From the IMG/VR virus record IMGVR_UViG_3300032313_001035: a stretch of 64,000 nucleotides of DNA; one strand, 5' to 3'. Made by a program: the position numbers and the translations under genes. The stretch is from a virus. Positions 1 through 62,555 of the stretch are shown here, piece by piece; position 1 is the stretch's first letter, and the number at the start of each line of letters is the position of its first letter. The notes beneath the pieces were generated by a model. That model did no database searches and was not told the DNA's origin. It saw only the letters and a program-made list of their open reading frames with translations.

Positions 1-57
1 GGTGGAATGTATTCCAGAGCAATACGAGAGGGCAACTGGCAGATTGTCAAGAGCTAA
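1..57 (+). CDS. 3' end of an upstream array gene (partial)
   Basis: Open frame GGMYSRAIREGNWQIVKS* ending TAA at 55-57, just before the motif copy at 60. Confidence 0.5.
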   Translation, partial: GGMYSRAIREGNWQIVKS

Positions 58-84
58 CGTAAAAACCACATTAGAATAATTTAT

Positions 85-160
85 GCGCTTGTAGCTCAGT
101 GGTTAGAGCAGGGGTCTCATAAACCCTTGGTCACTGGTTCAAGTCCAGTCGGGCGCACCA
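85..160 (+). tRNA. tRNA with CAT anticodon, probably tRNA-Ile2 (lysidine type) rather than Met
   Basis: 76-nt cloverleaf: GCGCTTG/CGGGCGC acceptor stem, TAGCTCAGTGGTTAGAGC D-arm, CTCATAA anticodon loop, TTCAAGT T-loop, encoded CCA; body resembles bacterial ileX; lacks initiator hallmarks. Confidence 0.9.
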
Positions 161-188
161 CTCATAAAAACCACATTAAACTACACCC

Positions 189-533
189 ATGGCAACCGAA
201 CAACAACTGAAGAAAGCGTTGGACACCGCATGCGAGAACATGTTTCTGGAATACGCTAACAACTGGCTAACACTGGAATGTATGGCAAGTGACAAGCACA
301 TGTCTGTCAACGCATTACGCGCTATGATAGAACATGGTAAGGCAATCAACAATGCTCGTTTATTCCCTACGCATGAGCAGATTTTTGAGCGTGTTCGCGA
401 ATTGTTCAATGGTAACATGAACCATGCGTCCATGCACAATAGGGAATCGTTGGATGATCTGATTGCTGATCTGGTGCAATATCGCGAGTCATTGCCAATG
501 ATCGCTGAATACATGAAGTTCAACCTACTGTAA
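189..533 (+). CDS. Array cassette, hypothetical protein (114 aa)
   Basis: ATG 6 nt after TAAACT of motif 165; stop is the TAA of motif 531. Confidence 0.85.
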   Translation: MATEQQLKKALDTACENMFLEYANNWLTLECMASDKHMSVNALRAMIEHGKAINNARLFPTHEQIFERVRELFNGNMNHASMHNRESLDDLIADLVQYRESLPMIAEYMKFNLL

Positions 534-554
534 AAACCACATTAAACTATTGCC

Positions 555-863
555 ATGATATTAAACTTAACACCACACTCAGTCACTGACACGGTGACTA
601 ACACGACATTTCCACCACACGGTTCTACTGTCCCTAGAGTAGCAACGACCTCTACTCAAGTGGGTGACATTGATGGAATACCATTGTTTGCCACGACATT
701 TGGTGACGTTCAAGATGCGCCACCGATTCAAGATGGTGTGTTCTACATCGTCAGTCTATTGGTAAAACAGGCATTACCGCATCGTAAGGACTTGCTATCA
801 CCGGGAACTCTCGTTAGAGATGACAAGGGCAACCCCATTGGATGCAAGGGATTCAACGCATAA
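555..863 (+). CDS. Array cassette, conserved phage hypothetical (NLTPH...VRDxxGxxIGC type)
   Basis: Motif-to-motif ORF; NLTPH N-terminus and VRDDKGNPIGC C-terminus seen in a widespread viral family of unknown function. Confidence 0.85.
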   Translation: MILNLTPHSVTDTVTNTTFPPHGSTVPRVATTSTQVGDIDGIPLFATTFGDVQDAPPIQDGVFYIVSLLVKQALPHRKDLLSPGTLVRDDKGNPIGCKGFNA

Positions 864-887
864 AAACCACATTAAACTGATTGCGCC

Positions 888-1076
888 ATGACACGCTACT
901 ACACAAACCAACTGTTGGAAATGATCGAAGAAGGTATCCTTGATAGGGATACTGTTATTAACGCCTGTCTCTCATACATGTCTGAGTCTGAAGTTCAGGA
1001 CATGATGGAGTCGAATGAGTTCATCGAAGAAGAGGAAGAGGAGGACGAAGAAGAGGAAGAGGAGGAAGAGGAATAA
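888..1076 (+). CDS. Array cassette, small very acidic protein with poly-Glu tail
   Basis: Motif-to-motif ORF ending EEEEEEDEEEEEEEEE. Confidence 0.8.
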   Translation: MTRYYTNQLLEMIEEGILDRDTVINACLSYMSESEVQDMMESNEFIEEEEEEDEEEEEEEEE

Positions 1077-1103
1077 AAACCACCTTAAACTATTGCCACA
1101 CCT

Positions 1104-1331
1104 ATGACTAACAGACAAAAATGCCGCCGTATCATTAACGCGATCTGCTTGAAAGAATCAGGATTGTCGCTTGATGAACTACCAGATCTGCCTTGCATCA
1201 TGTATGCCCTTGATGAAATGGAGGCACTGGTCGATGCTGATGGGAGCGATACTCTCATGTCAGAATTGCAGAACATTGCACAAGATGCTGTGTTTGAATT
1301 ACTGGAAGAAGAAAGGATTTTGTTGGACTGA
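1104..1331 (+). CDS. Array cassette, acidic hypothetical protein
   Basis: ATG follows motif 1074. Confidence 0.8.
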   Translation: MTNRQKCRRIINAICLKESGLSLDELPDLPCIMYALDEMEALVDADGSDTLMSELQNIAQDAVFELLEEERILLD

Positions 1332-1372
1332 AATCCCTGCGTAAAAACCACCTTAAACTACTGGCACACCAT

Positions 1373-1696
1373 ATGAAAAACAACTGGAAACCTGTTATCA
1401 AATCGTTCTTCACTATCGCACTTGCCCATGGGTTCACCATCCACACTGTAGACAACGGTGATGGTGAAGATGTTCTCATGAATAGCATCGAGGAAGCAGT
1501 GGAAGAAGTCACTGCCACAGATGAGTCCCACGTGGTTCTACTTGCTCCTGATGGCAAGCGTGTGTGGTTCTTTCTGGTTCTCGGTAATGAGCCATTTGAA
1601 ACGATCTGCAACTACTCTGTCTATGATCTGGCAGACAAGGTGCATGCGGAGTTCTCAGACGAGTGGGAAGGCAAACCCTGCCCACAGATCGCATAA
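1373..1696 (+). CDS. Array cassette, hypothetical protein
   Basis: ATG follows motif 1342; stop is the TAA of motif 1694. Confidence 0.85.
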   Translation: MKNNWKPVIKSFFTIALAHGFTIHTVDNGDGEDVLMNSIEEAVEEVTATDESHVVLLAPDGKRVWFFLVLGNEPFETICNYSVYDLADKVHAEFSDEWEGKPCPQIA

Positions 1697-1724
1697 AAAC
1701 CACCGCAAACTATTGCCGCACCTT

Positions 1725-1823
1725 ATGCTGATTCTGATATTACTAACAATGCTCACGTTAGATTCAAGGTCTGTGCTGATGTATGTCATTACGATCTGTT
1801 CATGGATTTACTATTGCATTTGA
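1725..1823 (+). CDS. Array cassette, 32-aa hydrophobic peptide MLILILLTMLTLDSRSVLMYVITICSWIYYCI
   Basis: Exactly fills the gap between motifs 1694 and 1824; 3' part of track ORF 1521..1823. Confidence 0.7.
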   Translation: MLILILLTMLTLDSRSVLMYVITICSWIYYCI

Positions 1824-1847
1824 TAAAAACCACCTTAAACTATTGCC

Positions 1848-2135
1848 ATGCCTGATATTCGAGACACACTGGTTCATGCTGTAACACAGTATGATTTGAA
1901 AGAAAGTAAAAAACCTACTTACAATAGCTATGCTCTGGCGCATTACATTGCTCGTATTGATGATATCATGCGAGACATTGAAGCAGGTGCAGATACCCGC
2001 GAAGCTATTGTTGCTGGCTTTACTGGTAGACTATTAAACACTTGTTTGCGTTCTCTGAAACTCCCGAAACCATCACAAGATGAGATGCAGGGAATGTGGA
2101 GTCTTGTCTATCATCCTGTGAAAAACCATTCGTAA
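1848..2135 (+). CDS. Array cassette, hypothetical protein
   Basis: Motif-to-motif ORF; stop is the TAA of motif 2133. Confidence 0.85.
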   Translation: MPDIRDTLVHAVTQYDLKESKKPTYNSYALAHYIARIDDIMRDIEAGADTREAIVAGFTGRLLNTCLRSLKLPKPSQDEMQGMWSLVYHPVKNHS

Positions 2136-2162
2136 AAACCACCTTAAACTACTGGCACACCT

Positions 2163-2429
2163 ATGACAAACACCGACATCATTACCAAGTTCCTCAATGG
2201 CGCAATCGCTGGCACGATTCGTCGCACTAACTCCTACACAGGGGGAAATCACACTCCCTTGTTCATCGAGGGTGCTACCCTCTTTTCCTATGGTCATCAC
2301 TATGAACTAGCAAAGCGTATGCCTGATGGTTCTGTGTGGGTGAACAATACACGCTACAGCGCAACCACAAGCAAACATGCTTCACTGGTTCGTTCCCTAG
2401 CGATTCGTAAGGGCATCACCCTTGCCTAA
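2163..2429 (+). CDS. Array cassette, conserved phage hypothetical (YSxTTSKH motif)
   Basis: ATG follows motif 2133; LFSYG...RYSATTSKH pattern common in phage early proteins. Confidence 0.85.
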   Translation: MTNTDIITKFLNGAIAGTIRRTNSYTGGNHTPLFIEGATLFSYGHHYELAKRMPDGSVWVNNTRYSATTSKHASLVRSLAIRKGITLA

Positions 2430-2431
2430 CT

Positions 2432-2490
2432 TTCTAGGTAGACATGGCAACGTCCCCCTCTCTGGTGGTCGGGGAGGGGGGCAACCCATG
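2432..2490 (+). other. Intergenic GC-rich hairpin element, copy 1
   Basis: TTCTAGGTAGACATGGCAA then CCCCCTCTCT/GGGGAGGGGG stem; no U-tract; related to 3069-3130. Confidence 0.7.
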
Positions 2491-2515
2491 ATAAAAACCA
2501 CATTAAGATATTGCC

Positions 2516-2758
2516 ATGCCCACTGCAACCATCAATCCTAAAGAGATCGCGGTAACTCACACCGTGCGTCCCGATGTCAACCGCGAGTTCCTCACCATCG
2601 AATGTCCTAACGGATGGGATGACGTGAAAAAACTTACGAAGAAAGTCCTGACTTTCGAGGGTCGTAAGTTCACCTTTGCTAGTTGGAACTCTGACTACAA
2701 CTACGCATCGTTCGTGTGTCCGTTGAATGGAAAACCATCTATCGCCACCATCTCCTGA
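2516..2758 (+). CDS. Array cassette, hypothetical protein
   Basis: ATG 6 nt after TAAGAT of motif 2492. Confidence 0.85.
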   Translation: MPTATINPKEIAVTHTVRPDVNREFLTIECPNGWDDVKKLTKKVLTFEGRKFTFASWNSDYNYASFVCPLNGKPSIATIS

Positions 2759-2790
2759 GATGGTAAAAACCACCTTAAACTAACTGTGCC

Positions 2791-3078
2791 ATGACAACCA
2801 TGCAACTACCCACGATAGGCGATCTCGCCAAAGCACTCACAAACATCAAAATGTTTATTGATGATGATATGCGTGAGACGAATGATGACCTTCCAAGCAT
2901 TCATGTCACTCTTGCCTGTGGCGAGAAAGGATATGCTTTGCAGATGAGTGACAACTCTTACACTGGTGCTGCCTATTCCTTTCCACACTGGGGTGTTGGC
3001 ACACTTTACCGCCGCACTAACTCTCGTGACCTTGCACGGGATTTGATTAACCAGTGCCGCGACCTTGCTTCTAGGTGA
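2791..3078 (+). CDS. Array cassette, hypothetical protein
   Basis: ATG follows motif 2764. Confidence 0.85.
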   Translation: MTTMQLPTIGDLAKALTNIKMFIDDDMRETNDDLPSIHVTLACGEKGYALQMSDNSYTGAAYSFPHWGVGTLYRRTNSRDLARDLINQCRDLASR

Positions 3079-3130
3079 ACATGGCAAGCCCTTCCCCCTC
3101 TCGTTTCATTAAAGGGGGGAGGGCAATTCA
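3069..3130 (+). other. Intergenic GC-rich hairpin element, copy 2
   Basis: TTCTAGGTGAACATGGCAA then GCCCTTCCCCCT/AGGGGGGAGGGC 12-bp stem; no U-tract. Confidence 0.7.
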
Positions 3131-3160
3131 TCGTAAAAACCACATTAAACTGACTGTGCT

Positions 3161-3370
3161 ATGATTACCATAACATCCACATTCGTTTCGCCACTTGATG
3201 AGAAAAACCGCTACACCGTTTGGAATGCCTTTTCAGATGGAAGCGCATCGTCTACTGAAGTTACTCGCCACACGGAACACCTTGGCAGTGCTAAGGTGAC
3301 ATGGAAGGAAAATCATGCTGCTGGTAGTTACATGGCAGAGATGATTCAGAAGATGGGACAACTCCAGTAA
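3161..3370 (+). CDS. Array cassette, hypothetical protein
   Basis: Motif-to-motif ORF; stop is the TAA of motif 3368. Confidence 0.85.
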   Translation: MITITSTFVSPLDEKNRYTVWNAFSDGSASSTEVTRHTEHLGSAKVTWKENHAAGSYMAEMIQKMGQLQ

Positions 3371-3394
3371 AAACCACATTAAACTGACTGCACC

Positions 3395-3949
3395 ATGACT
3401 ACCATGACCACCACCACTGCCTCCCCTCGTCAGACGTTTGCCCTTTTCTGCGCTACTGGAAAGGACTGGCGAAACGTCAATCTAACCCGCGAGCAAGTTT
3501 CTGCCATGCTTACAGCATGCCAAGGCGTTCGCGGCAACAAGACTGCTGCACTGGCAATCTGCGAAAGCGTATTGTCAGGCAATCCATTGCCAGCACCTGC
3601 ACCAGCAACCCCTTCATGGCAAGCTATCTATGATGAAGCGTGTGCTGCTGGCAATGCTGCTGCTGCTGCATGCAAGCCTGAGCCTATGCTCATCCAAGGC
3701 TATGCACCTGTCATGGGGGGCGTTTGTGGCTTCGCTGGGGTGAAGTTTCCCGATGCTCGCAAACCGTTTGCCAAATGGCTAGTGAAGGAAGGCATCGCTC
3801 GCAAGAACTATGGCACGGGTGTCTATGTCAATATGGGTTTCGAGATTGGTGGGCAATCCCTAACGATAAAAGAGCATTATGCCAGCGCGTTTGCTAGCGT
3901 ATGTGCAAAGCACGGTATCGAATGCCGTGTGGAAAGCCGCATAGACTGA
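3395..3949 (+). CDS. Array cassette, two-domain conserved phage hypothetical
   Basis: PAPAPA linker; C-domain GVCGFA...QSLTIKE.YA.AFA...SRID resembles a common phage family. Confidence 0.85.
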   Translation: MTTMTTTTASPRQTFALFCATGKDWRNVNLTREQVSAMLTACQGVRGNKTAALAICESVLSGNPLPAPAPATPSWQAIYDEACAAGNAAAAACKPEPMLIQGYAPVMGGVCGFAGVKFPDARKPFAKWLVKEGIARKNYGTGVYVNMGFEIGGQSLTIKEHYASAFASVCAKHGIECRVESRID

Positions 3950-4016
3950 TCGTAAAAACCACAGTAAGATCATGGCACGGCAAGTCACCTGCTTGTCGTG
4001 CCTAACTACTACCATT

Positions 4017-4283
4017 ATGAAAACACTTGTCCTTAAAACCGTTTGCCATAACTGCAAAGTCTTAGCGTTTGTATTGAATCGCTGCTACCATCACGTGGCA
4101 CGGGTGCTGCCTACCATCACATTGATTGTCACGGCACTGGCAATGCTCATCGCACCTACGTGCATTGTGCTGGCAATCATGCTGCTGCAACCTACTGGTG
4201 CGATGCTGGCACTGCTGCTGCTGTTGCTTTTCACGTCCTGTAGCTCATGCGCGTTCCTGATGAGCTATGTGCAACGTCGATAA
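4017..4283 (+). CDS. Array cassette, membrane protein (alternative start 3972)
   Basis: Two long hydrophobic stretches; stop is the TAA of motif 4281; hairpin 3974-4002 lies before ATG 4017. Confidence 0.7.
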   Translation: MKTLVLKTVCHNCKVLAFVLNRCYHHVARVLPTITLIVTALAMLIAPTCIVLAIMLLQPTGAMLALLLLLLFTSCSSCAFLMSYVQRR

Positions 4284-4307
4284 AAACCACCTTAAACTGT
4301 CACTGCC

Positions 4308-4538
4308 ATGATTGACTATGTCTCTACCAGCGAGGGTGAGGGTTACTTCACCGTGAACGGCAAGCGCGGGTTCTCCTGCGATTGCGTATTGAATCTGTAT
4401 CTGCGTGGAACTAACGCTACGCTAGCGGCAGTGCATGTTCTTTCCAAGTGGAAGGCTAAAGCGGATGCTGAAGCAGCACGTGCTGAAGCAGCATGGGAGC
4501 GTTTCGCAAACGACAACCCAGAGCTAAGTTACCTGTAA
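4308..4538 (+). CDS. Array cassette, hypothetical protein
   Basis: Motif-to-motif ORF. Confidence 0.85.
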   Translation: MIDYVSTSEGEGYFTVNGKRGFSCDCVLNLYLRGTNATLAAVHVLSKWKAKADAEAARAEAAWERFANDNPELSYL

Positions 4539-4562
4539 AAACTACCTTAAACTGACTGTGCC

Positions 4563-4793
4563 ATGAATAACATTCCTGCTGACACCACTGTGCGCGACAA
4601 TCGCGGTTGCACCATCATCACCACCTACAATAAGAAGGTGGCAGACATCTGCATTGCTAGCATGGGAAGGAGCGCACGTTCCTTCCAAAAGTCTGGTAAT
4701 GATGGGTTGCCCGATTGTTACACGATCACGATCAGTCCTTCGACTGGAAAGATTGTTGATGTCACCCGCGATTTCACTCCTATGTTCGGGTAG
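4563..4793 (+). CDS. Array cassette, hypothetical protein
   Basis: ATG follows motif 4536. Confidence 0.85.
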   Translation: MNNIPADTTVRDNRGCTIITTYNKKVADICIASMGRSARSFQKSGNDGLPDCYTITISPSTGKIVDVTRDFTPMFG

Positions 4794-4831
4794 GAGTGAC
4801 CTGATAAAAACCACCTTAAACTGACTGTGCC

Positions 4832-5125
4832 ATGACTATCGTCACCACCACCGCTACGTTCACCGCGCCTATGATTCAGGCTTTTCTCGACTTCATCGCC
4901 CCATCTGCGGGTCAGGTGATTGAGATGCCCAATGGCAAGGTATTGCTTAACTTCACAGAAGAAGGCGACAAACTTGTCGCATGGATTTCAGAGGGTGCGA
5001 CCCCTGCACCATGGAACGTGCAGAGCATGCGCTTGAAATGGCTAGAGCCTGAAGAACTTGCTGCTGTTCGCGAGCTTTGTGACAACCCCAGCAAAGCCAA
5101 AGTGCTGGGCTATGTCGGTATGTAA
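4832..5125 (+). CDS. Array cassette, hypothetical protein
   Basis: Motif-to-motif ORF. Confidence 0.85.
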   Translation: MTIVTTTATFTAPMIQAFLDFIAPSAGQVIEMPNGKVLLNFTEEGDKLVAWISEGATPAPWNVQSMRLKWLEPEELAAVRELCDNPSKAKVLGYVGM

Positions 5126-5149
5126 AAACCACCTTAAACTGTCCATACC

Positions 5150-5449
5150 ATGACTACCATGACACTCGCATCCATCGCACCCGCCGCCACCATCGCCTTC
5201 AACCTTGGTGGCTATTACAATGACAAAGGACAACAATGTGCTGCTGCTGACATCGGCAACGGTATGGTCTACTTCGTAGACATCGCACGTGGTCTTGACT
5301 ACTTCTTCGAATGTGGTCTGTCCGTATCGGAGATACGTTATCAGTATGTCAACAATCGTGGTGTGCATGTGCGCTTCGATGACTACGATTCAGTGAATCA
5401 GCTTCGTAGAGAGTTGGAAGCACTTGCTGCTACCGCACCTGCGATCTGA
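5150..5449 (+). CDS. Array cassette (last), hypothetical protein
   Basis: ATG follows motif 5123; TGA abuts motif 5450. Confidence 0.85.
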   Translation: MTTMTLASIAPAATIAFNLGGYYNDKGQQCAAADIGNGMVYFVDIARGLDYFFECGLSVSEIRYQYVNNRGVHVRFDDYDSVNQLRRELEALAATAPAI

Positions 5450-5469
5450 TAAAAACCACCGCGATTCTC

Positions 5470-5510
5470 AGCCCTCAGTGTCTTCGGACGCTGGGGGCTT
5501 TTTTTGTTTT
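5470..5510 (+). terminator. Intrinsic terminator closing the array
   Basis: AGCCCTCAGTGTC-TTCG-GACGCTGGGGGCT stem (cUUCGg loop) followed by a T tract. Confidence 0.92.
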
Positions 5511-5598
5511 TAGGCATAGGTGGTTTTTACGAGGGGGGGGTCTGTTAGGAATAGGATAAAAACTACATCGGGGGTGGTGGGTAGGGGGGTGCCATGGC

Positions 5599-5744
5599 TA
5601 AAAATTTTTTTAATATATTTTTCGAATTTTTCCCTATAGCGCTCCTATTTGATAAAAATTTTTTTATATATTTTTCGAATTTTCCTTTATAGCGCCTAAA
5701 ATCTAAAAAAATTTTTTTTATATATTTTTCGAATTTTTCCCTAT
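5599..5744. repeat. Three tandem ~44-bp AT-rich direct repeats
   Basis: TAAAAATTTTTTT(A)ATATATTTTTCGAATTTTyCCyTAT(AGCGC) at ~5599, ~5653, ~5704. Confidence 0.9.
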
Positions 5745-5765
5745 GGTCTCTGGCGTTATTGGGAA

Positions 5766-6173
5766 TTATTTAATTTTAGTGTCTTCGGGAATATCTTTTT
5801 CTGGTACTATATACACATCGATAACACTTTTATTTTCTATATCTTTGGCTTTTTTTAATCGGTTTAAACCATCGGCTACCGACAGACCATATGATTTGTC
5901 TTTAATGACTAACAATGGAAATGATGTATCTGCTTTCATCATACGAGCGTTTGATTTTTTTGGATCTTCCTTGTTTTGTTTATTCCACCATTTCAATTCG
6001 TGTTTGAGTTTTGAAATGGGATAATCCTTTTTAAAATATTTATCTTTATTTTTCTCGGCAAATTTTACTACTGCTTCTACAGATCTCTTAACACCTTTAT
6101 CATCCTCCATTACAGAATCTTTGAAGTTCTCTAGAATTTGTTTCGAATTAAAAAAGTTTTGGAAAGATATCAT
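5766..6173 (-). CDS. ParB/Srx-like domain protein
   Basis: ADTSFPLLV...VADGLNRL resembles the ParB-N DGxHR motif; start moved to 6173 because TATAAATA lies 5 nt upstream. Confidence 0.6.
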   Translation of the reverse strand: MISFQNFFNSKQILENFKDSVMEDDKGVKRSVEAVVKFAEKNKDKYFKKDYPISKLKHELKWWNKQNKEDPKKSNARMMKADTSFPLLVIKDKSYGLSVADGLNRLKKAKDIENKSVIDVYIVPEKDIPEDTKIK

Positions 6174-6187
6174 AAGATTATTTATAT

Positions 6188-7339
6188 TTATATTTGTTCT
6201 TGTCTCCATGAATAGTCTATTTTCTTTTCAGGTAGATCTTTTAATGGTATGTCTAGAAATGTCTTTTCTATATCTGCCATTTCTTTTCTCATGGTTTCTT
6301 TGACGCTTGAGAAGATTTGTTTTAATGAGTCCATATCTTTTCTACTCACTGTTCTATATAGGTTATAGTATGATTCATCTGTGCCATCTAGATACTGTTT
6401 GTTGAAATCCCATATTGGGTCATTTCCATAAGGATCTGTAGTTTGTCCATCTTCCATCATGTCTACGAATTTATTAAATGTTCGGTCTATATAATAAATT
6501 TCATTTTTATTTCTGAGCATCTTTTCATTTTGTGATATTCGTAGTTTGATCAAGTCATCTACGTTTTTTAATTTAAATCTTTTGATAAGTTTTGCTATTA
6601 TTCTTTTGGCATAGATAGCTGGTTTGCTATGGCTTCTGCGTATTTCATTATTGATTTTATGTCCTAGAGATAATCTTGCATTGTAATTGGCATACTCACG
6701 ATCAACATCTTTTAATTGGGTTAAAAATAATAATATATTTCTTATATCTCTTTTTTTGTAGAATTTGCCATATCGTTCGTATGGTTCTGTAATTTTTATT
6801 GTATCTGGAATATTTGGTTGGGGGTCTTTATTCGTGGAGAAATTTTTATAACTGGTGTAATAAACGAAGGGAATGTCATCTCTTTTGCAGATGTCTTCTA
6901 CTTCTTTTAAGGTGTTCATGTAGGAACTTTCTGGATTACACCATGTTATGACTTCCATTATATATTTTTTAGCGTTTGGTATGGTTGGTTGGTCTGAATA
7001 GATACGGTCTTCCATTTCGCTGATACCTTCGCCACGATTTTTGATATTTGAATTTGACCAGTAATCAAATGCCTTACCCTTGTATCTGCTGTTCAAAAGA
7101 TCACCATCTAATTTAAATATGACACCGCTGGGATTGTTTTCGGAATAATTGTTGTATTTGCTACGGGCGGTAGACATGTAGAATATTTTTCCACCTTTGG
7201 AGGTATCGACACCTGTTTCCATTCCCAACGAGAACATATTGGATTTCAATATTTTTAAGGGTTCTATGGTATAGTGCCAAACTATACCTGTGATGGATTC
7301 GCAATAGAGTTCGAAGTATCTTTTGAAGTTTGGCAGCAT
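6188..7339 (-). CDS. Putative ADP-ribosyltransferase-fold protein, probable internal virion protein
   Basis: WHYT...YMSTARS...EMEDRI matches the H/R-STS-ExE layout of ARTs; late promoter at 7346-7351. Confidence 0.5.
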   Translation of the reverse strand: MLPNFKRYFELYCESITGIVWHYTIEPLKILKSNMFSLGMETGVDTSKGGKIFYMSTARSKYNNYSENNPSGVIFKLDGDLLNSRYKGKAFDYWSNSNIKNRGEGISEMEDRIYSDQPTIPNAKKYIMEVITWCNPESSYMNTLKEVEDICKRDDIPFVYYTSYKNFSTNKDPQPNIPDTIKITEPYERYGKFYKKRDIRNILLFLTQLKDVDREYANYNARLSLGHKINNEIRRSHSKPAIYAKRIIAKLIKRFKLKNVDDLIKLRISQNEKMLRNKNEIYYIDRTFNKFVDMMEDGQTTDPYGNDPIWDFNKQYLDGTDESYYNLYRTVSRKDMDSLKQIFSSVKETMRKEMADIEKTFLDIPLKDLPEKKIDYSWRQEQI

Positions 7340-7398
7340 TTCTATTATTTAGTATTGTATTTTGGATTTGTTCATGTTATTAATAGTTAAATAATAAC

Positions 7399-9000
7399 AT
7401 GTTTAATGATATAAGAAACTTACAACTTATCATCGAGAGTATCTACAGTGAGTTACTTCTCGAAAATAGAATCAACCGATATCTTCCGATGTTTGCGAAG
7501 GTATCAGAAAAAGGCGATGGTTCTGAGTATTTAGAGGATGTCAAATCGATTATTGATGTCTTTAAAAAGGATAATCGAATCGTGTGGATGTTGAAACAAT
7601 ATAGAAACAATATTGTCAATTCTTCTCCTAGAAGAGCACACACCATGTTAAATGCACAGTTGGAGGAATTTAAACATTTCTATTCGATGAATATTCCCAA
7701 AATCGATAATTTCCAGAATTATGATAATATAAATGTTGATGACCTTCTTGCGAAATTTGACGAATACGAAAAGGAAAACAAAGTCGATGATGAATGGGTT
7801 CCTATCAGCGAGGACATCACACCAATCATCGATTACAAAAATGGGTGGATATGGTATTCTCTTAATAAAGAATATTGTAGGTTGGAAGGGGGTGCTATGG
7901 GTCACTGTGGAAATACCGCAGCATGGACGAGTGGCGACACTGTATTATCATTACGATTTGTGAAAAATGTCAATGGTGTTCTTTATGGTAGACCATCCCT
8001 GACATTCATTCGTCATGGTAATGGTTATCTCGGAGAAACCAAAGGTCGTGCCAACGAGAAGCCAAATAGCAAGTATCATGATATGATCGTGGATCTATTG
8101 TTGACCAAAAATGGTGGGGAGTTTTATATTCAAGGTATTGAAGGTGGGGGATATGCGCCTGAGAAAAATTTTGCTGTGAGCGATCTTTCTCCACAACTAA
8201 AACAAAAATTGCTTACCACTCGTCCTGAACTCAAATCTCTTAAAGATATCTATGATATGAACGGTAATCAGGTCACTGAAGAATTGGTAGAAGCTATCAA
8301 TAATATTTTAGATGAATATAGGAAAACACCAAAGGGTGTGTCATATAGTAACAATGGTAAACGAAATATCGCGATTGTTAAGATATGGGACGATTGGGAG
8401 GATATGTATTCCGATATATACAATTTCCCCGAAAATCTTGAAAATTATTCTGGTTATATTAAAGGAGATGAGTTTTTTGACATAGGAGATTACAACATCG
8501 ACAAATCAGAACTCGAAAATTTATATAACCGTATGGATGTCGATGAAGATGAATTGAGAACATACATAGCTGAAAACTATGGTGAGGACGCAGAGTTCCC
8601 GATAGATTTATTTGGATTTTTATATGATAGCGATGATCCGATTATTGGTGACATAAGAGAGGCGATTCATTCTGGTTATGAAAGCGGTGCTGAAAGAGAA
8701 CTATATAAATATTTCAGATTAGGTATCGATGATATGGTAATTCAATACGAAAACCCAAATGACCCTGAAGGTGATCATTTGGATGGTTATGTGACACTGG
8801 AAGATGAATCGATATTCAAACCCATTTCTTTAACTTTTGCTATGAATGAATTTTTAATCATGCTTGACGAAAGAATAAGATTCAGCGACAATGCTAGCAC
8901 TGAAGGTGATATGGATGTTCCTTATTATGGATTTGAGGGTTATGATGAATCAGCAGCGAAAGAAAAATTGAGAGAGATTCACCCACTTATTTTCAAATAA
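7399..9000 (+). CDS. PcfJ-like domain protein
   Basis: EGGAMGHCG...VLSLR...ETKGRANEKP motifs; late promoter at 7388-7393. Confidence 0.6.
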   Translation: MFNDIRNLQLIIESIYSELLLENRINRYLPMFAKVSEKGDGSEYLEDVKSIIDVFKKDNRIVWMLKQYRNNIVNSSPRRAHTMLNAQLEEFKHFYSMNIPKIDNFQNYDNINVDDLLAKFDEYEKENKVDDEWVPISEDITPIIDYKNGWIWYSLNKEYCRLEGGAMGHCGNTAAWTSGDTVLSLRFVKNVNGVLYGRPSLTFIRHGNGYLGETKGRANEKPNSKYHDMIVDLLLTKNGGEFYIQGIEGGGYAPEKNFAVSDLSPQLKQKLLTTRPELKSLKDIYDMNGNQVTEELVEAINNILDEYRKTPKGVSYSNNGKRNIAIVKIWDDWEDMYSDIYNFPENLENYSGYIKGDEFFDIGDYNIDKSELENLYNRMDVDEDELRTYIAENYGEDAEFPIDLFGFLYDSDDPIIGDIREAIHSGYESGAERELYKYFRLGIDDMVIQYENPNDPEGDHLDGYVTLEDESIFKPISLTFAMNEFLIMLDERIRFSDNASTEGDMDVPYYGFEGYDESAAKEKLREIHPLIFK

Positions 9001-9003
9001 TTT

Positions 9004-9480
9004 ATGAAGACATTTTTAGAATCATTTTATGATATACAGGAGTTAACTCCTCATACCAAGTTCTCAGATGTAAAAGGTATGGAATACCTGAAGGTCTATC
9101 GTTCTTCAGCAAGACCAAATAAACACAATTATACAGAGGGTTCACACGCTGGAACATTACAGCAAGCGTTGATCAGAGCGGATTATATGATCAACGATGA
9201 AGAAAAATACGATGAATATTATCTTTATGAATTGATTATTAGATTGGGTAGAGTATATCCATCTCTTTTAAAAGATGATGGCAGTGATCATGGATATGAC
9301 TACATATCCGATATGAAAGACTATGACACTGCTTTCTATAAAAATACTGGAGAAGGCGATATTAGAAACGAAAACCTTTCAATTATTATAATAAATCCCG
9401 ATAGTGTATTTAAATCCGAAATGGTAAAAGAGATTGATAGCGAATATTTGACCTCTATTCAAGATGATTTGTATAATTAA
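9004..9480 (+). CDS. ADP-ribosyltransferase-like protein (polyvalent-protein ART type)
   Basis: VYR...GSHAGTLQQA..R...YDTAFYKNTGEG...SIIIINPD pattern. Confidence 0.55.
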   Translation: MKTFLESFYDIQELTPHTKFSDVKGMEYLKVYRSSARPNKHNYTEGSHAGTLQQALIRADYMINDEEKYDEYYLYELIIRLGRVYPSLLKDDGSDHGYDYISDMKDYDTAFYKNTGEGDIRNENLSIIIINPDSVFKSEMVKEIDSEYLTSIQDDLYN

Positions 9481-9492
9481 TTAAATACATAC

Positions 9493-10647
9493 ATGAGCAA
9501 TTTTGATAAATTATTTAGCCAATTAATGGAGAGTGTTATTGTATCCGAGGCGTTTGATAGCGAAATGGGTAGTAGCCGAAAAATAGATTCTCAAGAATTA
9601 ATCGATTATATTAATCGTGTAATTAGTAGAAAAAATAATTCCAAATCAAAAGTAAAAGATAATAAGATGAAGATAAAAGATTATCTTCATATGCCGCATA
9701 TTCATGCCTCGATAGCGAATAGAATTAAAGTGACTACTAATGATGGTTACGAATTAGATTTAAATAAATTTTCCCAATTTATTAAAAAGCGTCCCCCCGC
9801 TTTACTTCGTCAAAATGAAAAAATGGTGAAAAGTGGGACGGATGATACTGTATTCTATAACACATCCCTTCCTGCTCTCAAGGGCTTAGTGATCGACGAA
9901 GATACAGGAGAATTTAGAATAGTAGATACATGCCCATCCGCTGGAAATTGTCAATTGATTTGTTATGCGAAACACGGGTCATATGTATTATTCCCTGATG
10001 TTTCCATTTCACAAAATAGAGCTTTAAATTATTTGTTTAATGATCCAGAAGGATTCCAAGATCAAATGGAAGCAGAAATTAGATTAGCCAGAGCTAAAAA
10101 CAGAACGAGCGGAAAACGAGTGCAAATTAGATGGAATGATTCGGGTGATTTACTTTCTCCCAAATTTTTCAAAATGGTTGTGGATATTGCCAATAATACC
10201 CCACTCGTGGATCATTACATTTATACCAAAGAAGTTGCGATGATTAAGCAATTTGCCAATCCACCCGAAAATATAATTTTCAATTTTTCATATGGTGGTA
10301 GAAAAGATCAAGAAAAATTAATTGATCCTTCTACAGATAAATTATCCCATATAGTCGATGTTAGAGACAAAGAAAAAGTTAAAAATAATTTGAGTGTTAT
10401 CAAAAAAATGAAATACATAGATTATGATAAGACATCTAAAGAATGGTATTATAATAATCCAGATGCTGTGAAACAATTGATAGCACAACACTATGGTATT
10501 GATCCAAAAACACTTTTAACAATTGATGAATTAGCAAAAACACCTAAAGGCGAAGCAAGACAATATAATGTTATTGTGTTGCCAGGAGAATCCGATCTTT
10601 CTGCTAGTAGAAGAGATGTTGGTGGGACTTTCTTAATTATACACTAA
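9493..10647 (+). CDS. GP88-family (radical-SAM-like Cys cluster) protein
   Basis: TCPSAGNCQLICYA and IRWNDSGD, YIYTK motifs; late promoter at 9482-9487. Confidence 0.7.
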   Translation: MSNFDKLFSQLMESVIVSEAFDSEMGSSRKIDSQELIDYINRVISRKNNSKSKVKDNKMKIKDYLHMPHIHASIANRIKVTTNDGYELDLNKFSQFIKKRPPALLRQNEKMVKSGTDDTVFYNTSLPALKGLVIDEDTGEFRIVDTCPSAGNCQLICYAKHGSYVLFPDVSISQNRALNYLFNDPEGFQDQMEAEIRLARAKNRTSGKRVQIRWNDSGDLLSPKFFKMVVDIANNTPLVDHYIYTKEVAMIKQFANPPENIIFNFSYGGRKDQEKLIDPSTDKLSHIVDVRDKEKVKNNLSVIKKMKYIDYDKTSKEWYYNNPDAVKQLIAQHYGIDPKTLLTIDELAKTPKGEARQYNVIVLPGESDLSASRRDVGGTFLIIH

Positions 10648-10657
10648 TCAGATACAA

Positions 10658-12526
10658 ATGTTTAGATTTGATAAATTATATAAAAAATTTTACATAGAAT
10701 CTTATGAAGAAGATTCTGGTTATAAAGAAATTGAATTTGTATGTGTCAACACTGAGCCAGAAAATATAAATACCGCATCTTCAAAAGAATCACAACGCCG
10801 ATTATATTTTGATTTAAAAAATATAGAAGGTGTTATACCACTATGGCAAGATTGGAGTGATTATAGCGGTGAAGATTATATACAATTAAGCCTTACAGCA
10901 ATATACAAAGATCCCAAATCTAAAAAAAATATCATTGCTGCCGCGAAAAGAAATGGTGTAAAGATAGATATGATTCAATCGGTGGATGATGAATATGTTG
11001 ATAGGGCAATTAGAGGTGATCATGAAGGGCAAATAAATGAATCTTACGAAGACGATTTTTCTTCCAATTGGCAGAAAGCAATTACCACATCGGAAGAACT
11101 TCGAGTAGCATTGGATTTGATGAAAAATATCAAGTCTAAAAATCAAGGAGATATTTATATTGTTGGCGGTGTTCCTAGAGATATTTTAATGGGTAATGAA
11201 ATTGATGATGTGGATATGGCAACCAATATTCCATTTGAAAAGATTGCCCAAGATTTTGACATCAGAAACATTTCGAAGAATGATTCTCAACCCGTATATA
11301 CTATTTTGTGGAAAGGTTATAATTTTGATCTGGCAAAATTTAGAGAAGATTCTGGTGATATTGGTAGACAAAATAATGTATCCACTGAAACAGACTCATT
11401 TGAAGCAGATACTCGTAGAAGAGACCTCACTATTAATTCTTTTGGACTTGATGAAAATGGTTCGATTGTCGATTATCAGGGCGGTCTAGAAGATCTCAAA
11501 AACAAGATTGTTCGTGCTGTAGGTGATCCTAAGAAAAGATTTTTGGAAGATGCTACCAGAATTTTGCGAGTGTTTCGTTTTGCTGCTAAGATGGATTTTG
11601 ATATTGAAGAGAATACCAAAAGAGCAGCCATCGAATTGAAGAAATTACTCCAAGATCCTAAAGCAATTTCTAAAGAAAGTATATCAAAAGAATTTTACAA
11701 GTCTGCGAAAAGCGGAAAAACACTTGCAAACTTTTTGAAAAAATTACAGGACACTGGTATTCTCCATGACATTCTACCAGAATTCACTTCTATGGAAGGA
11801 TATGATCATGATCCAGAACATCATCCAGAAGGAGATTCGCAAGTTCTTGGTCACATGTATGAGTGTTTGAATGTATCTCCTTACAAAGATCCTGTGATAA
11901 ATTTAGCTGTTCTTTTCCATGATTTCGGAAAAGCTACCACACGTGGAAGAAAACCAAATGGATTTAGTAGTTATCATGGACACGAAGCTGCTGGTGTCCC
12001 AATCGTGGAAAACATATTTGAGAGATTGCGTTTTGCAGAATTATCTGCCCAAGATAAAAAGAATATATTAGCAGCCGTCGATAAACACATGCACGTGCAT
12101 AATCTGGATAAATTGAATATTAAAACTCTCGCAAGATTAATTCAAAATCCAGCATGGGAAATTATCAAAGCTGTTGGATATTGCGATGAAGCATCAAGAG
12201 GAGATCAATTATTTAACAAACAAGAGTTTGAAGAGAAAATAAAAAGAGCCGAAGAAAAAGTTTCCAATATTGGAGCCAATCAAGACGATACTCGTAAGCG
12301 ATTAAAACAATATTTCGATGGTAAAAAATTAATGGAATGGTTTCCTGTTCTCAAAAATGACAAGACCAAATTCAAAGATATTGTGGAGGCATTGAACGAA
12401 TACGTATTGGAGACTCTTAATAAAGGTGATACGCCCAATGATGATGAGATGCGAGAAATTGCAGGTGATATATTAGGGACTGGTAGATTCAATGAATCTT
12501 TCAAAAGATATTTAAAGTCTCTATAA
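10658..12526 (+). CDS. cca: Class II tRNA nucleotidyltransferase (CCA-adding) with HD domain and extra N-terminal domain
   Basis: VGGVPRD, DVDMAT, RRDLTINS, EDATRILRVFRF, HHPEG, LFHDFGK. Confidence 0.9.
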   Translation: MFRFDKLYKKFYIESYEEDSGYKEIEFVCVNTEPENINTASSKESQRRLYFDLKNIEGVIPLWQDWSDYSGEDYIQLSLTAIYKDPKSKKNIIAAAKRNGVKIDMIQSVDDEYVDRAIRGDHEGQINESYEDDFSSNWQKAITTSEELRVALDLMKNIKSKNQGDIYIVGGVPRDILMGNEIDDVDMATNIPFEKIAQDFDIRNISKNDSQPVYTILWKGYNFDLAKFREDSGDIGRQNNVSTETDSFEADTRRRDLTINSFGLDENGSIVDYQGGLEDLKNKIVRAVGDPKKRFLEDATRILRVFRFAAKMDFDIEENTKRAAIELKKLLQDPKAISKESISKEFYKSAKSGKTLANFLKKLQDTGILHDILPEFTSMEGYDHDPEHHPEGDSQVLGHMYECLNVSPYKDPVINLAVLFHDFGKATTRGRKPNGFSSYHGHEAAGVPIVENIFERLRFAELSAQDKKNILAAVDKHMHVHNLDKLNIKTLARLIQNPAWEIIKAVGYCDEASRGDQLFNKQEFEEKIKRAEEKVSNIGANQDDTRKRLKQYFDGKKLMEWFPVLKNDKTKFKDIVEALNEYVLETLNKGDTPNDDEMREIAGDILGTGRFNESFKRYLKSL

Positions 12527-13396
12527 TTACATTATAGATACGGTTCCTATATGAGAACCAACATAATAATCGAATAATTGCTCTAGAATTGGTTTGAATT
12601 CGTATTCGATTAAATTGTTTGCGGTATCTTCGTCTTGTAATTTATACATTCGACCTGTGTCTCTACCCCATGCTTTTTTATTATCGCTCATTAGAATTTC
12701 GGGGGCTGGATTTAAATTTAATTCTCCATCATGTAACAACCAATATGCGAAACATTCGTGGTAAAATTCTGCGGGTCTGGGTAAAAGTTCCCTTCGAGCA
12801 CTTCTAAATTTACCGATTTTTTGGAATAAATCTCTGATCGAATACATATTAGAATATCTTAAATTAGTATATGCGGATGTGTTCATACCATAACATTCTA
12901 AAATTTCTTTTAGAATTCTTGATATTTCCCTATCATAATATTTGATACTGTTATCATTTTGTCTACCACGAAATGTAGCAGCAAATGCATGTCCAATCCT
13001 ATGAGTTATTGTCCAAGGTGTCAGTGGAACTTTCTCAGCGGCTGCATTATTGGTAAAAATAACAGTAACTTCGTTATCATCTGGAAGTGGGAAGTCATGT
13101 CCTGCTTTAACACCAATTAGTTCTTCCAATTGGTTGATATCCACAATTCCTCTTTCTGCTTGCTTCCAAGCATTTGGTAACTTAACAAAATATAAATTAA
13201 AATCCCAATTGCTTATATTGTTATATTTTTGTTCTAGTTTTTTCAAACCTGCGGGAGAAGACAAAATTCCTATAGAAGCTTTATCATAACCATGGCGATT
13301 TTTTTTATCATCCCATTTACCAATTTTTTTCAAATTGGTCAGAGCCATCTCATTATAGATAGCTTCGAAATTTTCGATATCTTTTTTAAATCCCAT
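12527..13396 (-). CDS. Zincin-like protein (HRIGH variant of HExxH)
   Basis: PWTITHRIGHAF...EFYHECFA; late promoter at 13402-13407. Confidence 0.5.
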   Translation of the reverse strand: MGFKKDIENFEAIYNEMALTNLKKIGKWDDKKNRHGYDKASIGILSSPAGLKKLEQKYNNISNWDFNLYFVKLPNAWKQAERGIVDINQLEELIGVKAGHDFPLPDDNEVTVIFTNNAAAEKVPLTPWTITHRIGHAFAATFRGRQNDNSIKYYDREISRILKEILECYGMNTSAYTNLRYSNMYSIRDLFQKIGKFRSARRELLPRPAEFYHECFAYWLLHDGELNLNPAPEILMSDNKKAWGRDTGRMYKLQDEDTANNLIEYEFKPILEQLFDYYVGSHIGTVSIM

Positions 13397-60753: not shown

Positions 60754-61149
60754 ATGGAACAGCTTAAAAAGTATCAACAACAGTATCAAGAGTTTTGCGG
60801 CATTGATGATTTTAATCTCGAAGATAGAGCTAAACGTGTTCCAGCCGAAAAACATTTTTGGGTATGTCGATTGATTGATGCCAAAATCGAAATGGATAAT
60901 CTCAATAAAATGAAAACGACCCATCGTAATGTTCTCAAACAAAAGATTATCACCGAATCACCAATAGCATTGAATGAACAGGTTTTGAGCACACAGGTTG
61001 ATAAATCACCTTCGATGGACACTATCAATCAAAAAATCAAAGAACAAGCGTTTATTATTGAGTATTTGGAAAAGCTAGTGAATCAAATAACTTTTATTGG
61101 TAATGATATTAAAAATATTATCGCTGTTAAAACTCTGCAAGAACAATGA
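60754..61149 (+). CDS. uvsY: Recombination mediator
   Basis: Helical 131 aa with C-terminal IEYLE...DIKNII; directly upstream of uvsW. Confidence 0.75.
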   Translation: MEQLKKYQQQYQEFCGIDDFNLEDRAKRVPAEKHFWVCRLIDAKIEMDNLNKMKTTHRNVLKQKIITESPIALNEQVLSTQVDKSPSMDTINQKIKEQAFIIEYLEKLVNQITFIGNDIKNIIAVKTLQEQ

Positions 61150-62555
61150 TAACATTGGATTACAAACCTTCTCGACGAATGGGTCAAGTTATCACTGATA
61201 GTGATACACTTGGAATTTTACGTAACCATTTTTCTGTAAAAAATGACGGCGCAGTATTTGCCAAACGTAAAGGTCAGAGATTTGTAAAAGATAGGAAGTA
61301 TGTCATAACACCAACTGGATTGTTCGATTTTGGCTTCTATGGTGAAATTATGAAATACCTTAGAGACCAACAGATCACCGATATTCAAATGACAGATGAC
61401 TTTAAAAAAAGATTAATCTGTGGAAAGAAAGTTGAATTTTGGGATGATCTCAAATACACTGCACGATACTATCAAAAAGATTCTATTTTGGATGGTTTGA
61501 AAAGAGGTTATGGTATTTTTCTACTCGCCACAGGTGCTGGTAAATCACTGGCACAGGCACTGTTAATTGAGAATTATTTGAGAAATTTTGATCGTCCCAA
61601 CTTTAAATGTTTGGTGATTGTTCCGGGTTTATCACTAGTGGAACAGTTGCAAAAAGATTTCAAAGAGTATGAAGTGACGTTCACATATTCTGGATGGACG
61701 GGTGATAACCCTTTGCAGGATACACAAGTTGTTATTTGCAATACACAGAATTTGAATAGTAAATTTTTGGAAAACGATTGGTTGATCGATGTTGATCTTT
61801 TGATTACTGATGAAGCACATGGAGTTAATAGTGATTCCAATCTTTCTAAAATTATTAACAAAATCCATACACCAAATAAATTTGGATTTACTGGAACTTT
61901 ATCAGATAAATTGATAGATAGATGGAAAACCATCGGTATATTTGGTCCTGTTATTTATGAAAAATCTTCTAAAGAGTTGAGAGATGAGAATTTCTTATCA
62001 AATGTTGAAGTTCATGTGATCAAACTACTACACCAAAACCCTCATAAATTTAAATATAAGCAAGAATTGGAATATTTATATGAAAACGAAAAAAGGAACC
62101 AACTTATTGGTAAACTTGTTGACAAACTTGAGAACAATATTCTTATCATGGTTAATCATCTTAATCATGGAGATAATTTACTATCTGTATTGTCTGATAG
62201 ATTTTGTGGACGTGTATTTTTTGTCAAAGGTGAAATGGCGGTCGAAGAAAGATTGAAAATCATACAGATGATGGAAGATCGAAATGATATCATTTGCATT
62301 GCAATGTCTTCTATATTTTCCACGGGTATTAACATCAAAAATCTCCCTAATATTTTATTTGTAGGGTTGGGTAAAAGTTATATCAGAGTGGTGCAATCAA
62401 TCGGTAGGGGTCTTCGTCTACACGAAAATAAACACAAACTTAGAATTTTCGATGTTTGTGACAACACGAGATACTCAACCTCTCATGCGGAATATCGTCA
62501 AAATATTTACAGTGATGAAGAAATCCAATGGAAGGAGAAAACTATTAATTTATGA
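61146..62555 (+). CDS. uvsW: SF2 DNA helicase
   Basis: ATGAGKS, DEAH, GFTGT, FSTGINI.NL, QSIGRGLR. Confidence 0.93.
   Translation: MITLDYKPSRRMGQVITDSDTLGILRNHFSVKNDGAVFAKRKGQRFVKDRKYVITPTGLFDFGFYGEIMKYLRDQQITDIQMTDDFKKRLICGKKVEFWDDLKYTARYYQKDSILDGLKRGYGIFLLATGAGKSLAQALLIENYLRNFDRPNFKCLVIVPGLSLVEQLQKDFKEYEVTFTYSGWTGDNPLQDTQVVICNTQNLNSKFLENDWLIDVDLLITDEAHGVNSDSNLSKIINKIHTPNKFGFTGTLSDKLIDRWKTIGIFGPVIYEKSSKELRDENFLSNVEVHVIKLLHQNPHKFKYKQELEYLYENEKRNQLIGKLVDKLENNILIMVNHLNHGDNLLSVLSDRFCGRVFFVKGEMAVEERLKIIQMMEDRNDIICIAMSSIFSTGINIKNLPNILFVGLGKSYIRVVQSIGRGLRLHENKHKLRIFDVCDNTRYSTSHAEYRQNIYSDEEIQWKEKTINL

Follow-up and report, generated by a model that had tools for sequence, protein, structure and literature searches.

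Here we describe a repeated 18-nt element at the left end of a 64,000-nt stretch of viral DNA (IMG/VR virus record IMGVR_UViG_3300032313_001035; the whole stretch is referred to below as the window), where it divides small genes into an array of single-gene units. We think it likely (probability about 0.7) that the element is a promoter of the early or accessory class that doubles as a patch of homology through which units are exchanged. This interpretation is carried by the behavior of the units among related phages and by the anatomy of the element across its family. Related sequences are cited by our own labels (e.g., G002, L254).

Layout of the array

The element has the form TAAAAACCAC(A/C)T followed by TAnnnT. 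It occurs in 19 direct copies on the + strand between window positions 60 and 5461, one per gene, with starts at 60, 165, 531, 861, 1074, 1342, 1694, 1824, 2133, 2492, 2764, 3134, 3368, 3953, 4281, 4536, 4805, 5123, and 5450. When the 64-kb window was scanned with TAAAAACCACMT, allowing at most one mismatch, 21 matches were found (1.35 expected), a number reached by none of 100 shuffled sequences, and no match fell in positions 5570-64000. A hexamer lies directly 3′ of the 12-mer (hereafter the box) in 18 of the 19 copies. It fits TAnnnT except at 1694, where it reads CAAACT; TAAACT is the most common form, and TAGAAT and TAAGAT also occur.

The 18 units are 105-585 bp long, and each holds a single + strand gene: a tRNA-Met (85-160) and 17 open reading frames (ORFs) of 32-184 amino acids (aa). 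The TAA of the motif serves as the stop codon of the preceding ORF at 531, 861, 1074, 1694, 2133, 3368, 4281, 4536, and 5123, and TGA abuts the motif at 1824 and 5450. Apart from the hairpin-bearing junctions after units 9 and 11, the gap between stop codon and motif is 0-11 nt. Seven array ORFs are common to a relative, and their differences are mainly at third positions, with a ratio of nonsynonymous to synonymous polymorphism (pN/pS) of 0.25 overall and 0.05-0.22 in five of them, which indicates that the array ORFs are real genes. The cassettes are under purifying selection.

The array closes with an end module (5450-5529, +) that consists of a box-only half motif (5450-5461), a terminator whose stem (5470-5499) is followed by Ts as far as 5509, and a half motif in inverted orientation (- strand, 5518-5529). 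The terminator (5470-5509) is the only strong intrinsic one in the array, and the module is 93-95% conserved in G002, L254, and L129. Because box-only copies in inverted orientation bracket the terminator, we suggest that the box can be bound alone. A degenerate box, TAAAAACTACAT (5557-5568, +), which lacks a -10 hexamer and lies in a G-rich tract, is the last trace of the motif before the GC content drops to ~31%.

Much of this layout had been reported in an earlier, sequence-only reading of the window. Its one-gene-per-unit arrangement and its count of 19 copies agree with the shuffle-tested motif scan and the ORF/tRNA map, and its list of stop codons is correct for all nine TAA overlaps and both TGA abutments. 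The claim that the full motif is missing from the other 58 kb holds within the window. It had counted all 19 copies as full motifs, which is right for the 18 that carry the hexamer but not for the copy at 5450, which is the 12-nt box alone. Continuation of the array off the left edge, also proposed there, is borne out by a 97%-identical strain (L254) that has 39 copies.

Whole units change at the element

Relative to the window, seven relatives with 80-97.6% identity have gained, lost, replaced, or reordered whole units, and the junctions lie in the motif. If the units of the window are lettered A B C D E F G H I J K L M N O P Q R, then L254 (97.3% identity) has an extra unit after C, unit S after I, unit T after N, and “. 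X” at the end in place of Q R. L256 (96.3%) has an extra unit after E, carries j in place of K, has gained T, and is without O and P; L252 and L253 (97.5%) are without unit L. Entire units (S, T, L, K/j, O, P, Q/R/X) thus vary among strains that are 96-97.6% identical. The sequence-only reading had suggested that one short element supplies stop codon, promoter, and possibly the point at which genes are gained, lost, or reordered; the test that it proposed, placing the breakpoints in relatives, gives a positive result.

The alternative that survives best is that the element is a promoter and nothing more. Illegitimate insertions and deletions would then occur anywhere, those that spare genes would survive, and breakpoints would merely appear at the motif. 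The motif does fill the intergenic space, so that gene and motif boundaries are indistinguishable, and the purifying selection on the cassettes fits this explanation as well. Several observations nonetheless make us regard it as unlikely. The alignment of the window with G002, whose shared units are 92% identical, falls into eight blocks with unit-sized gaps and replacements between them, and the left ends of all eight are at -1 or 0 of the motif. Counting both ends, 15 of 16 lie within -3 to +45 of a motif start, as do 17 of 20 in the alignment with L129 (80% identity), in which the unit order differs from that of the window; these zones make up 17% of the array. Every junction examined contains exactly one intact 18-mer, and there are no scars, partial genes, or duplicated fragments.

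The sequence of the element itself also argues against a promoter-only role. Between orthologous units the -10 hexamer is the same in 204 of 234 pairs, and the five bases at the end of the box (N5) in only 115 of 234. This is as predicted if exchange occurs within the 12-nt box and the -10, spacer, and gene travel together. N5 is homogenized within arrays irrespective of the gene downstream: in L129, 16 units carry CACCG although their orthologs elsewhere have CACAT or CACCT, a uniformity that points to concerted evolution of the repeat. Among 118 pairs from 97.1%-identical strains, motif position 10 differs in 18% and position 11 in 9%, whereas the other 16 positions never differ. Positions 10 and 11 therefore toggle 3-6 times faster than the flanking divergence. 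Finally, there is a precedent for recombination at such repeats, as the promoter-early stem-loops (PeSLs) of T4-type phages have been shown to delete the DNA between tandem copies via mini-circles (PMC4122927).

The junction left by deletion of unit L (unit 12) falls within ~47 bp of homology, comprising the motif and the first codons. Otherwise unrelated cassette proteins have common first codons (MTTM…, MNTM…), as seen at window starts 2791, 3395, and 5150 and in the G002 units at 19232, 19844, and 20466, so that homology between units extends beyond the ATG. These codons are either a footprint of recombination or a preferred 5′ coding sequence for leaderless translation.

The element as a probable promoter

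When 50 copies are aligned, conservation begins only at the first T (T0) of the motif: information content is ≤0.3 bits at positions -2 to -20 before it, and there is no -35 element. Within the hexamer T12, A13, and T17 are near-invariant and the middle is variable, which matches the signature of a sigma70-type -10 element. Family-wide, the element reads TAAAAAC-N5-TAnnnT, and 360 distinct copies were found in 19 sequences of uncultured T4-like phages (the window, G002, G003, and 16 loci). Counting from the -10, 351 of the 360 copies have a pyrimidine as the 6th downstream base, and 349 have a purine as the 7th. The distance from the -10 to the ATG is 6 nt in 165 copies and 9 nt in 108, with 13 nt the next class; at random positions the 6- and 9-nt spacings together account for 4.5%. 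In the window array, the spacing is 6, 9, or 12-13 nt. Given that the pyrimidine-purine pair is conserved whatever the length of the spacer, transcription is predicted to start 7 nt after the -10, which would leave mRNA leaders of 0, 3, or 6 nt. Direct reading of the array spacers found no Shine-Dalgarno sequence (GGAG, GAGG, and AGGA occur in none).

Could the A-rich sequence act instead on RNA, as an enhancer of translation start or re-initiation along a long polycistronic message, much as mycobacteriophage start-associated sequences would? The missing Shine-Dalgarno sequences would fit, as would the fact that the motif is always just 5′ of an ATG and often holds the previous stop codon. In addition, the single terminator makes read-through mRNAs probable, and their internal genes would need a ribosome entry signal. 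However, five arrays have the motif ahead of tRNA genes as well, with the mature tRNA 5′ end 8-9 nt past the -10. Finding it at the same distance ahead of genes that are not translated favors a promoter over a purely translational signal. Moreover, a TAnnnT with a pyrimidine-purine pair 7 nt downstream, regardless of the distance to the ATG, is what a sigma70 -10 and start site would look like, and the box-only copies that flank the terminator have no gene to serve. We therefore regard action on RNA alone as quite improbable, although the element may have a dual role, as a promoter and at the RNA level.

Copies are co-oriented with genes (70 forward and 1 reverse in G003, 68 and 0 in G004, and 37 and 2 in G002). 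In G003, which is complete at 207 kb, the element recurs at intervals of 1-3 kb from 7.5 to 57 kb, where it stands before accessory genes (RNA ligases among them), and its copies are dense from 57 to 67 kb, in an array of small genes. This spread in G003 and G004 indicates a promoter class that is not private to the window array. The motif had at first been taken for a feature of that one array, a view that we abandon, as the class appears to drive ~60 kb of one-strand genes in relatives. A generic sigma70 scan found no excess of sites (20 vs. 16.5 expected). Classical TTGACA-N17-TAnAAT promoters are also present in the phage, which indicates that the host sigma is of the sigma70 type. To our knowledge, a box at -24 to -18 without a -35 is not readable by sigma70 alone.

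Two further explanations are highly improbable. In the first, the repeat would be the site of a dedicated integron-like recombinase encoded elsewhere in the phage. The array does look cassette-like, with one gene per unit, co-oriented genes, and gain, loss, and reordering of units, and the sequence-only reading had drawn the integron parallel. However, no tyrosine or serine recombinase (PF00589 Phage_integrase, PF00239 Resolvase) was found in G002, G004, or the complete G003, in searches whose positive controls matched. The 18-mer, read directly, has neither dyad symmetry nor an attC-like hairpin; the same motif heads ordinary operons across ~60 kb of G003; and there is a promoter for every unit rather than one Pc for the array. 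With no integrase or resolvase found in these relatives, T4-type general recombination is the economical agent; the window itself has UvsY- and UvsW-like genes. In the second, the repeat would be the promoter of a T7-like single-subunit RNA polymerase. Its 18 contiguous conserved bases, AT-rich at the 5′ end and TA-rich at the 3′ end around a specific core, are reminiscent of T3/T7 promoters, and the block may loosely resemble that of T3. Although the conserved block is indeed contiguous, ~18 nt long, and sharp-edged, its last hexamer varies as TAnnnT and is not a fixed melting region, the start-site signal is 7 nt downstream of the block and not at its edge, and a search for PF00940 that scored the T7 control at 360 bits found no match in G001, G002, G004, or the complete G003.

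Genes outside the array show a pattern of their own. About 25 other window genes (5700-64000, both strands) carry (C/T)TAAATAAT ending 3-5 nt before the ATG (e.g., starts at 7339-, 7399+, 13685+, 24926-, 28329-, 35185+, 37683-, and 58267-). This sequence resembles the T4 late box (TATAAATA), positioned so that +1 would be the start codon. The Shine-Dalgarno sequence is nearly absent across the genes of 5700-64000, and from these start regions the whole phage seems to use leaderless mRNAs.

Proposed mechanism and its weak points

In the mechanism that we favor, promoter and homology patch combined, the host multisubunit RNA polymerase with a sigma70-type factor would read TAnnnT at -12 to -7. 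The fixed box (TAAAAAC at -24 to -18 plus five lineage-specific bases) would substitute for the missing -35, and by analogy with MotA/AsiA of T4 and mycobacterial PafBC it is probably read by a factor supplied by the phage or the host. Messages would begin at the start site predicted above, without a Shine-Dalgarno sequence, and the tRNA would be made with almost no 5′ leader. Because a single terminator closes the array, read-through transcripts are also likely. As the promoter makes up practically all of the intergenic DNA and its copies stand head to tail, it would also act as a homology patch. T4-type homologous recombination between co-infecting relatives could then delete, insert, replace, and reorder single-gene units, with crossovers within the 12-nt box and the -10 and spacer moving with the downstream gene.

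Several points weigh against this interpretation. The start site and the temporal class are deduced from sequence. No factor that reads the box was found: searches of G002, G003, and G004 for MotCF (PF09158) and AsiA (PF09010) gave no match, but neither did the control genomes, so these searches lack a positive control; no WYL-domain protein was found in the relatives; and among the genes that precede the array in G002, which encode a LAGLIDADG endonuclease, PTH2, an RNA ligase, and DUF6847, there is no obvious activator. Since the motif takes up all the DNA between genes, selection that keeps genes intact would likewise leave breakpoints there, and its contribution to the breakpoint pattern is not fully separable. 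A patch of 18-30 bp is short for efficient homologous recombination. Lastly, the model does not account for the large difference between the array and the rest of the window in GC at third codon positions (GC3).

Comparison with known systems

The precedent named in the sequence-only reading, the PeSLs, is the right one. PeSLs and the promoter-middle stem-loops (PmSLs) are mobile regulatory cassettes of the T4-type phages RB49/phi1, T4/PST, and KVP40/nt-1 (Arbiol et al. 2010, PMC2839356; Comeau et al. 2014, PMC4122927). They share their biology with the array, in that promoter repeats mediate modular gain, loss, and replacement. In both systems, copies of a promoter module separate small accessory ORFs within a hyperplastic region of the T4-like genome, and the insertions, deletions, replacements, and displacements that distinguish close relatives join in the repeats, with no dedicated recombinase. 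Unlike in PeSLs, there is no -35 hexamer ~17 bp from the -10; instead, a box at -24 to -13 is fused to the -10. There is no Shine-Dalgarno sequence, the ATG comes 6-13 nt after the -10, and a hairpin precedes the next motif in only two of 18 units. The density is far higher, with a motif at every gene and at the tRNA, often supplying the stop codon, and the array has nearly double the GC3 of the rest of the genome. The lineage is also very distant from the PeSL phages (portal ≤29% identical to any cultured phage). As three of the four defining sequence features are missing (-35, stem-loop, and Shine-Dalgarno), we class the array as a leaderless variant of PeSL cassettes and not as a member.

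In its promoter anatomy the element recalls the middle promoters of T4 (sigma appropriation by MotA/AsiA), which also pair a canonical -10 with an upstream box specific to the phage, lack a -35, and serve a temporal class of genes. In T4, however, the MotA box (TGCTT core) is near -30, 11-13 bp upstream of TAnnnT, whereas here TAAAAAC, at -24 to -18, is separated from the -10 by 5 bp, and the bases around -30 show no conservation. The “sigma adaptation” promoters of mycobacteria have a -26 element and a canonical -10, again without a -35, and are read by the housekeeping sigma aided by an inserted activator, PafBC (Muller et al. 2021, PMC8635444). Our element is similar to them in geometry, with a specific element in the -23 to -28 region directly upstream of a normal -10, but its box (-24 to -18) is unrelated in sequence, is ~3 nt closer to the -10, and belongs to a phage rather than to a host regulon. 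The resemblance is mechanistic only, and there is no WYL/PafBC-like protein in the relatives.

Leaderless genes in Actinobacteria and Deinococcus-Thermus have a -10 TAnnnT directly before the ORF. Like them, the genes of the array have a predicted +1 that coincides with the start codon or lies a few bases from it, and they lack a Shine-Dalgarno sequence. Unlike them, they have a long invariant box, a tandem copy per gene, and copies that would serve as recombination patches. Integron cassettes are also co-oriented single-gene units that come and go, but no IntI, hairpin attC site, or single Pc promoter was found in the relatives searched or in the array, and the 18-mer is not self-complementary. 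In mycobacteriophages, start-associated sequences are likewise short conserved motifs just upstream of many start codons. These are thought to act in translation, whereas our motif also heads tRNA genes and has a -10 and start-site signature.

The present case contributes a box promoter without a -35, a family-wide census, the evidence from tRNA genes, and polymorphism of units at the population level. We also put forward a bolder interpretation, as possible rather than probable. TAAAAAC-N5-TAnnnT would define a promoter class not described before, used by a widespread clade of uncultured T4-like phages, in which a factor retargets the sigma70 holoenzyme to a box centered at -21, a third solution beside MotA/AsiA and PafBC, and produces leaderless mRNAs and tRNAs. 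The element would at the same time be the exchange point of a recombinase-free cassette system, a promoter-based functional analog of the integron that new genes enter at the GC-rich 3′ end.

The array amounts to a natural experiment on modular phage evolution, as 97%-identical strains differ by several single-gene units with junctions in an 18-nt promoter. The 360 copies define a promoter class (no -35, box fused to the -10, and predicted leaders of 0-6 nt) well enough for the search for the box factor to be well posed. Genome-scale leaderless expression in a T4-like phage would bear on the translation of early genes and on the host range of abundant uncultured phages. In practice, the motif can serve to locate the accessory genes in metagenomic contigs of this clade, and the dozens of uncharacterized small early proteins that it demarcates are candidates for host-takeover or counter-defense screens.

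The units and their proteins

All units are on the + strand. Unit 1 (60-160) has its motif at 60-77 (TAAAAACCACAT+TAGAAT), and its tRNA-Met(CAT) at 85-160 begins on the 8th nt after the -10. Unit 2 (165-533) has a motif at 165-182, a 6-nt spacer, and an ORF of 114 aa (189-533), and it does not occur in G002. In unit 3 (531-863), the motif at 531-548 and a 6-nt spacer precede a 102-aa ORF (555-863; phrog_30542, function unknown) whose protein has homologs in Bacillus, Paenibacillus, and Microcystis phages. Unit 4 (861-1076; motif 861-878, 9-nt spacer) encodes 62 aa with a poly-Glu tail (888-1076), and unit 5 (1074-1331; motif 1074-1091, 12-nt spacer), which is not in G002, encodes 75 aa (1104-1331). 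Unit 6 (1342-1696) has a motif at 1342-1359, a 13-nt spacer, and an ORF of 107 aa (1373-1696). The weakened -10 (CAAACT) belongs to unit 7 (1694-1823; motif 1694-1711), with a hydrophobic 32-aa product (1725-1823). Unit 8 (1824-2135; motif 1824-1841, 6-nt spacer; ORF 1848-2135, 95 aa) is not in G002 and is at a different position in L129.

Unit 9 (2133-2481) has a motif at 2133-2150, an ORF of 88 aa (2163-2429), and a 13-bp G+C hairpin at 2452-2481 without a T tail. Directly 5′ of unit 10 (2492-2758; motif 2492-2509 with -10 TAAGAT; ORF 2516-2758, 80 aa), strains L252, L254, and L257 have the extra unit S. Unit 11 (2764-3124; motif 2764-2781; ORF 2791-3078, 95 aa) also ends in a hairpin without a T tail (12 bp, G+C; 3088-3124) and is swapped for a different unit in L256. 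Unit 12 (3134-3370; motif 3134-3151) holds an ORFan of 69 aa (3161-3370), for whose protein we found no homolog outside its own phage; the unit is missing from the 97.5%-identical L252 and L253 as well as from G002 and L129. Unit 13 (3368-3949; motif 3368-3385) encodes the largest protein, of 184 aa (3395-3949).

Unit 14 (3953-4283) has a motif at 3953-3970 (-10 TAAGAT), a 12-bp leader hairpin at 3974-4002, and a membrane-like ORF at 4017-4283 (88 aa, or 103 aa with a start at 3972). A hairpin of the form GGCACGG...CCGTGCC follows the promoter immediately in two cassette families (window 3974-4002, G002 [L001] ~1448-1475, and L129 ~7621-7650). Its stem is preserved despite different inner sequences, and it may be a regulatory 5′ structure. 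Units 15 (4281-4538; motif 4281-4298; ORF 4308-4538) and 16 (4536-4793; motif 4536-4553, a TAAAAACTAC variant; ORF 4563-4793) each encode 76 aa, and the latter is in neither L256 nor G002. Unit 17 (4805-5125; motif 4805-4822; ORF 4832-5125, 97 aa) is not in G002 or L254. Unit 18 (5123-5449; motif 5123-5140; ORF 5150-5449, 99 aa) was seen only in the window phage (window and L255).

A Pfam search of all 17 cassette proteins found no match, and an Rfam scan found the tRNA only. Six of 16 cassette proteins match PHROGs, all of them families of unknown function, with homologs scattered in unrelated phages. The 184-aa protein of unit 13 has 30 homologs, so far all within similar arrays, and a confident AlphaFold model (pLDDT 90) that matches nothing in the PDB by sequence or fold. 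With neither informative families nor informative structures, the “host-takeover/anti-defence” label that the sequence-only reading gave the array is a guess for which we found no evidence.

Phage context and relatives

The remainder of the window belongs to a very distant T4-like phage, with a T4-type portal (PF07230; best identity to cultured phages 27-29%), a ribonucleotide reductase, and a CCA-adding enzyme. Toward the right end are genes of T4-type recombination and late transcription, namely a UvsY-like gene (60754-61149, +; weak Pfam hit), a UvsW-like helicase (61146-62555, +), and a gp55-like small sigma (62552-62998, +; weak Sigma70_r2 hit).

The array differs from this remainder in composition. 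Its GC content is 44-51%, against ~33% for the rest of the window, and GC3 is 0.51 in the array genes (189-5449) and 0.27 in the other 69 genes (5766-64000). Alanine makes up 9.5% of residues in the array vs. 4.6% elsewhere, and lysine 4.4% vs. 8.1%. In every relative examined (L254, G002, and G003), GC rises toward the 3′ end of the array. Candidate explanations for the GC3 contrast are a match of early genes to host codons and import of cassettes from higher-GC phages. A chimeric assembly at 5450-5770, about which the sequence-only reading had worried, is excluded: L255 (ENA) is 100% identical to window positions 1-13370 without gaps, the end module and junction are the same in L254 (JGI), G002 (IMG/VR), and L129, and L254 and G002 show the same drop in GC.

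Similar arrays elsewhere were reached via homologs of the 184-aa protein, and a family-variant scan of IMG/VR added at least 10. Scans with the exact 18-mer found several copies in IMG/VR in G002 only, and, in metagenome contigs, single chance matches in the listed loci except for L050/L057, a possible distant relative with two copies and one weak tblastx hit. A family-variant scan of 185,579 prokaryote genomes gave single matches in unrelated taxa only, and hence no clue to the host. Among cultured phages, blastn found no match to the 37-nt promoter-plus-start unit. Literature searches with the box sequence returned unrelated papers only, and nothing on leaderless starts or late promoters of this clade.

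A few minor features deserve mention. The convergent gap 3′ of the array terminator holds 2.7 copies of a 54-bp AT-rich tandem repeat (5599-5744; core TTTTCGAATTTT), with a G-run tract (5570-5592) ahead of them. Here the window does not align to G002, and L254 has an additional 441-aa gene; possible roles of the stretch are those of an origin, a packaging site, or a terminator region. The CCA-adding enzyme (PolyA_pol head and HD domain) is encoded at 10658-12526 (+), and several array tRNAs in relatives have no encoded CCA and abut the next promoter (L125 3385-3458, L128 5443-5516). Near the start of the G002 early region, the LAGLIDADG homing endonuclease (L006 768-1808, -) has N-terminal helix-turn-helix domains. 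Immediately upstream of the main array of the same contig (L006 3700-4900), there is a second type of repeat-plus-gene array, consisting of six tandem paralogous mini-genes of ~65-80 aa each, which have a ~45-nt upstream block in common (…AGTGTCAAAGAATATAAATTTTAATAAATT-ATG).

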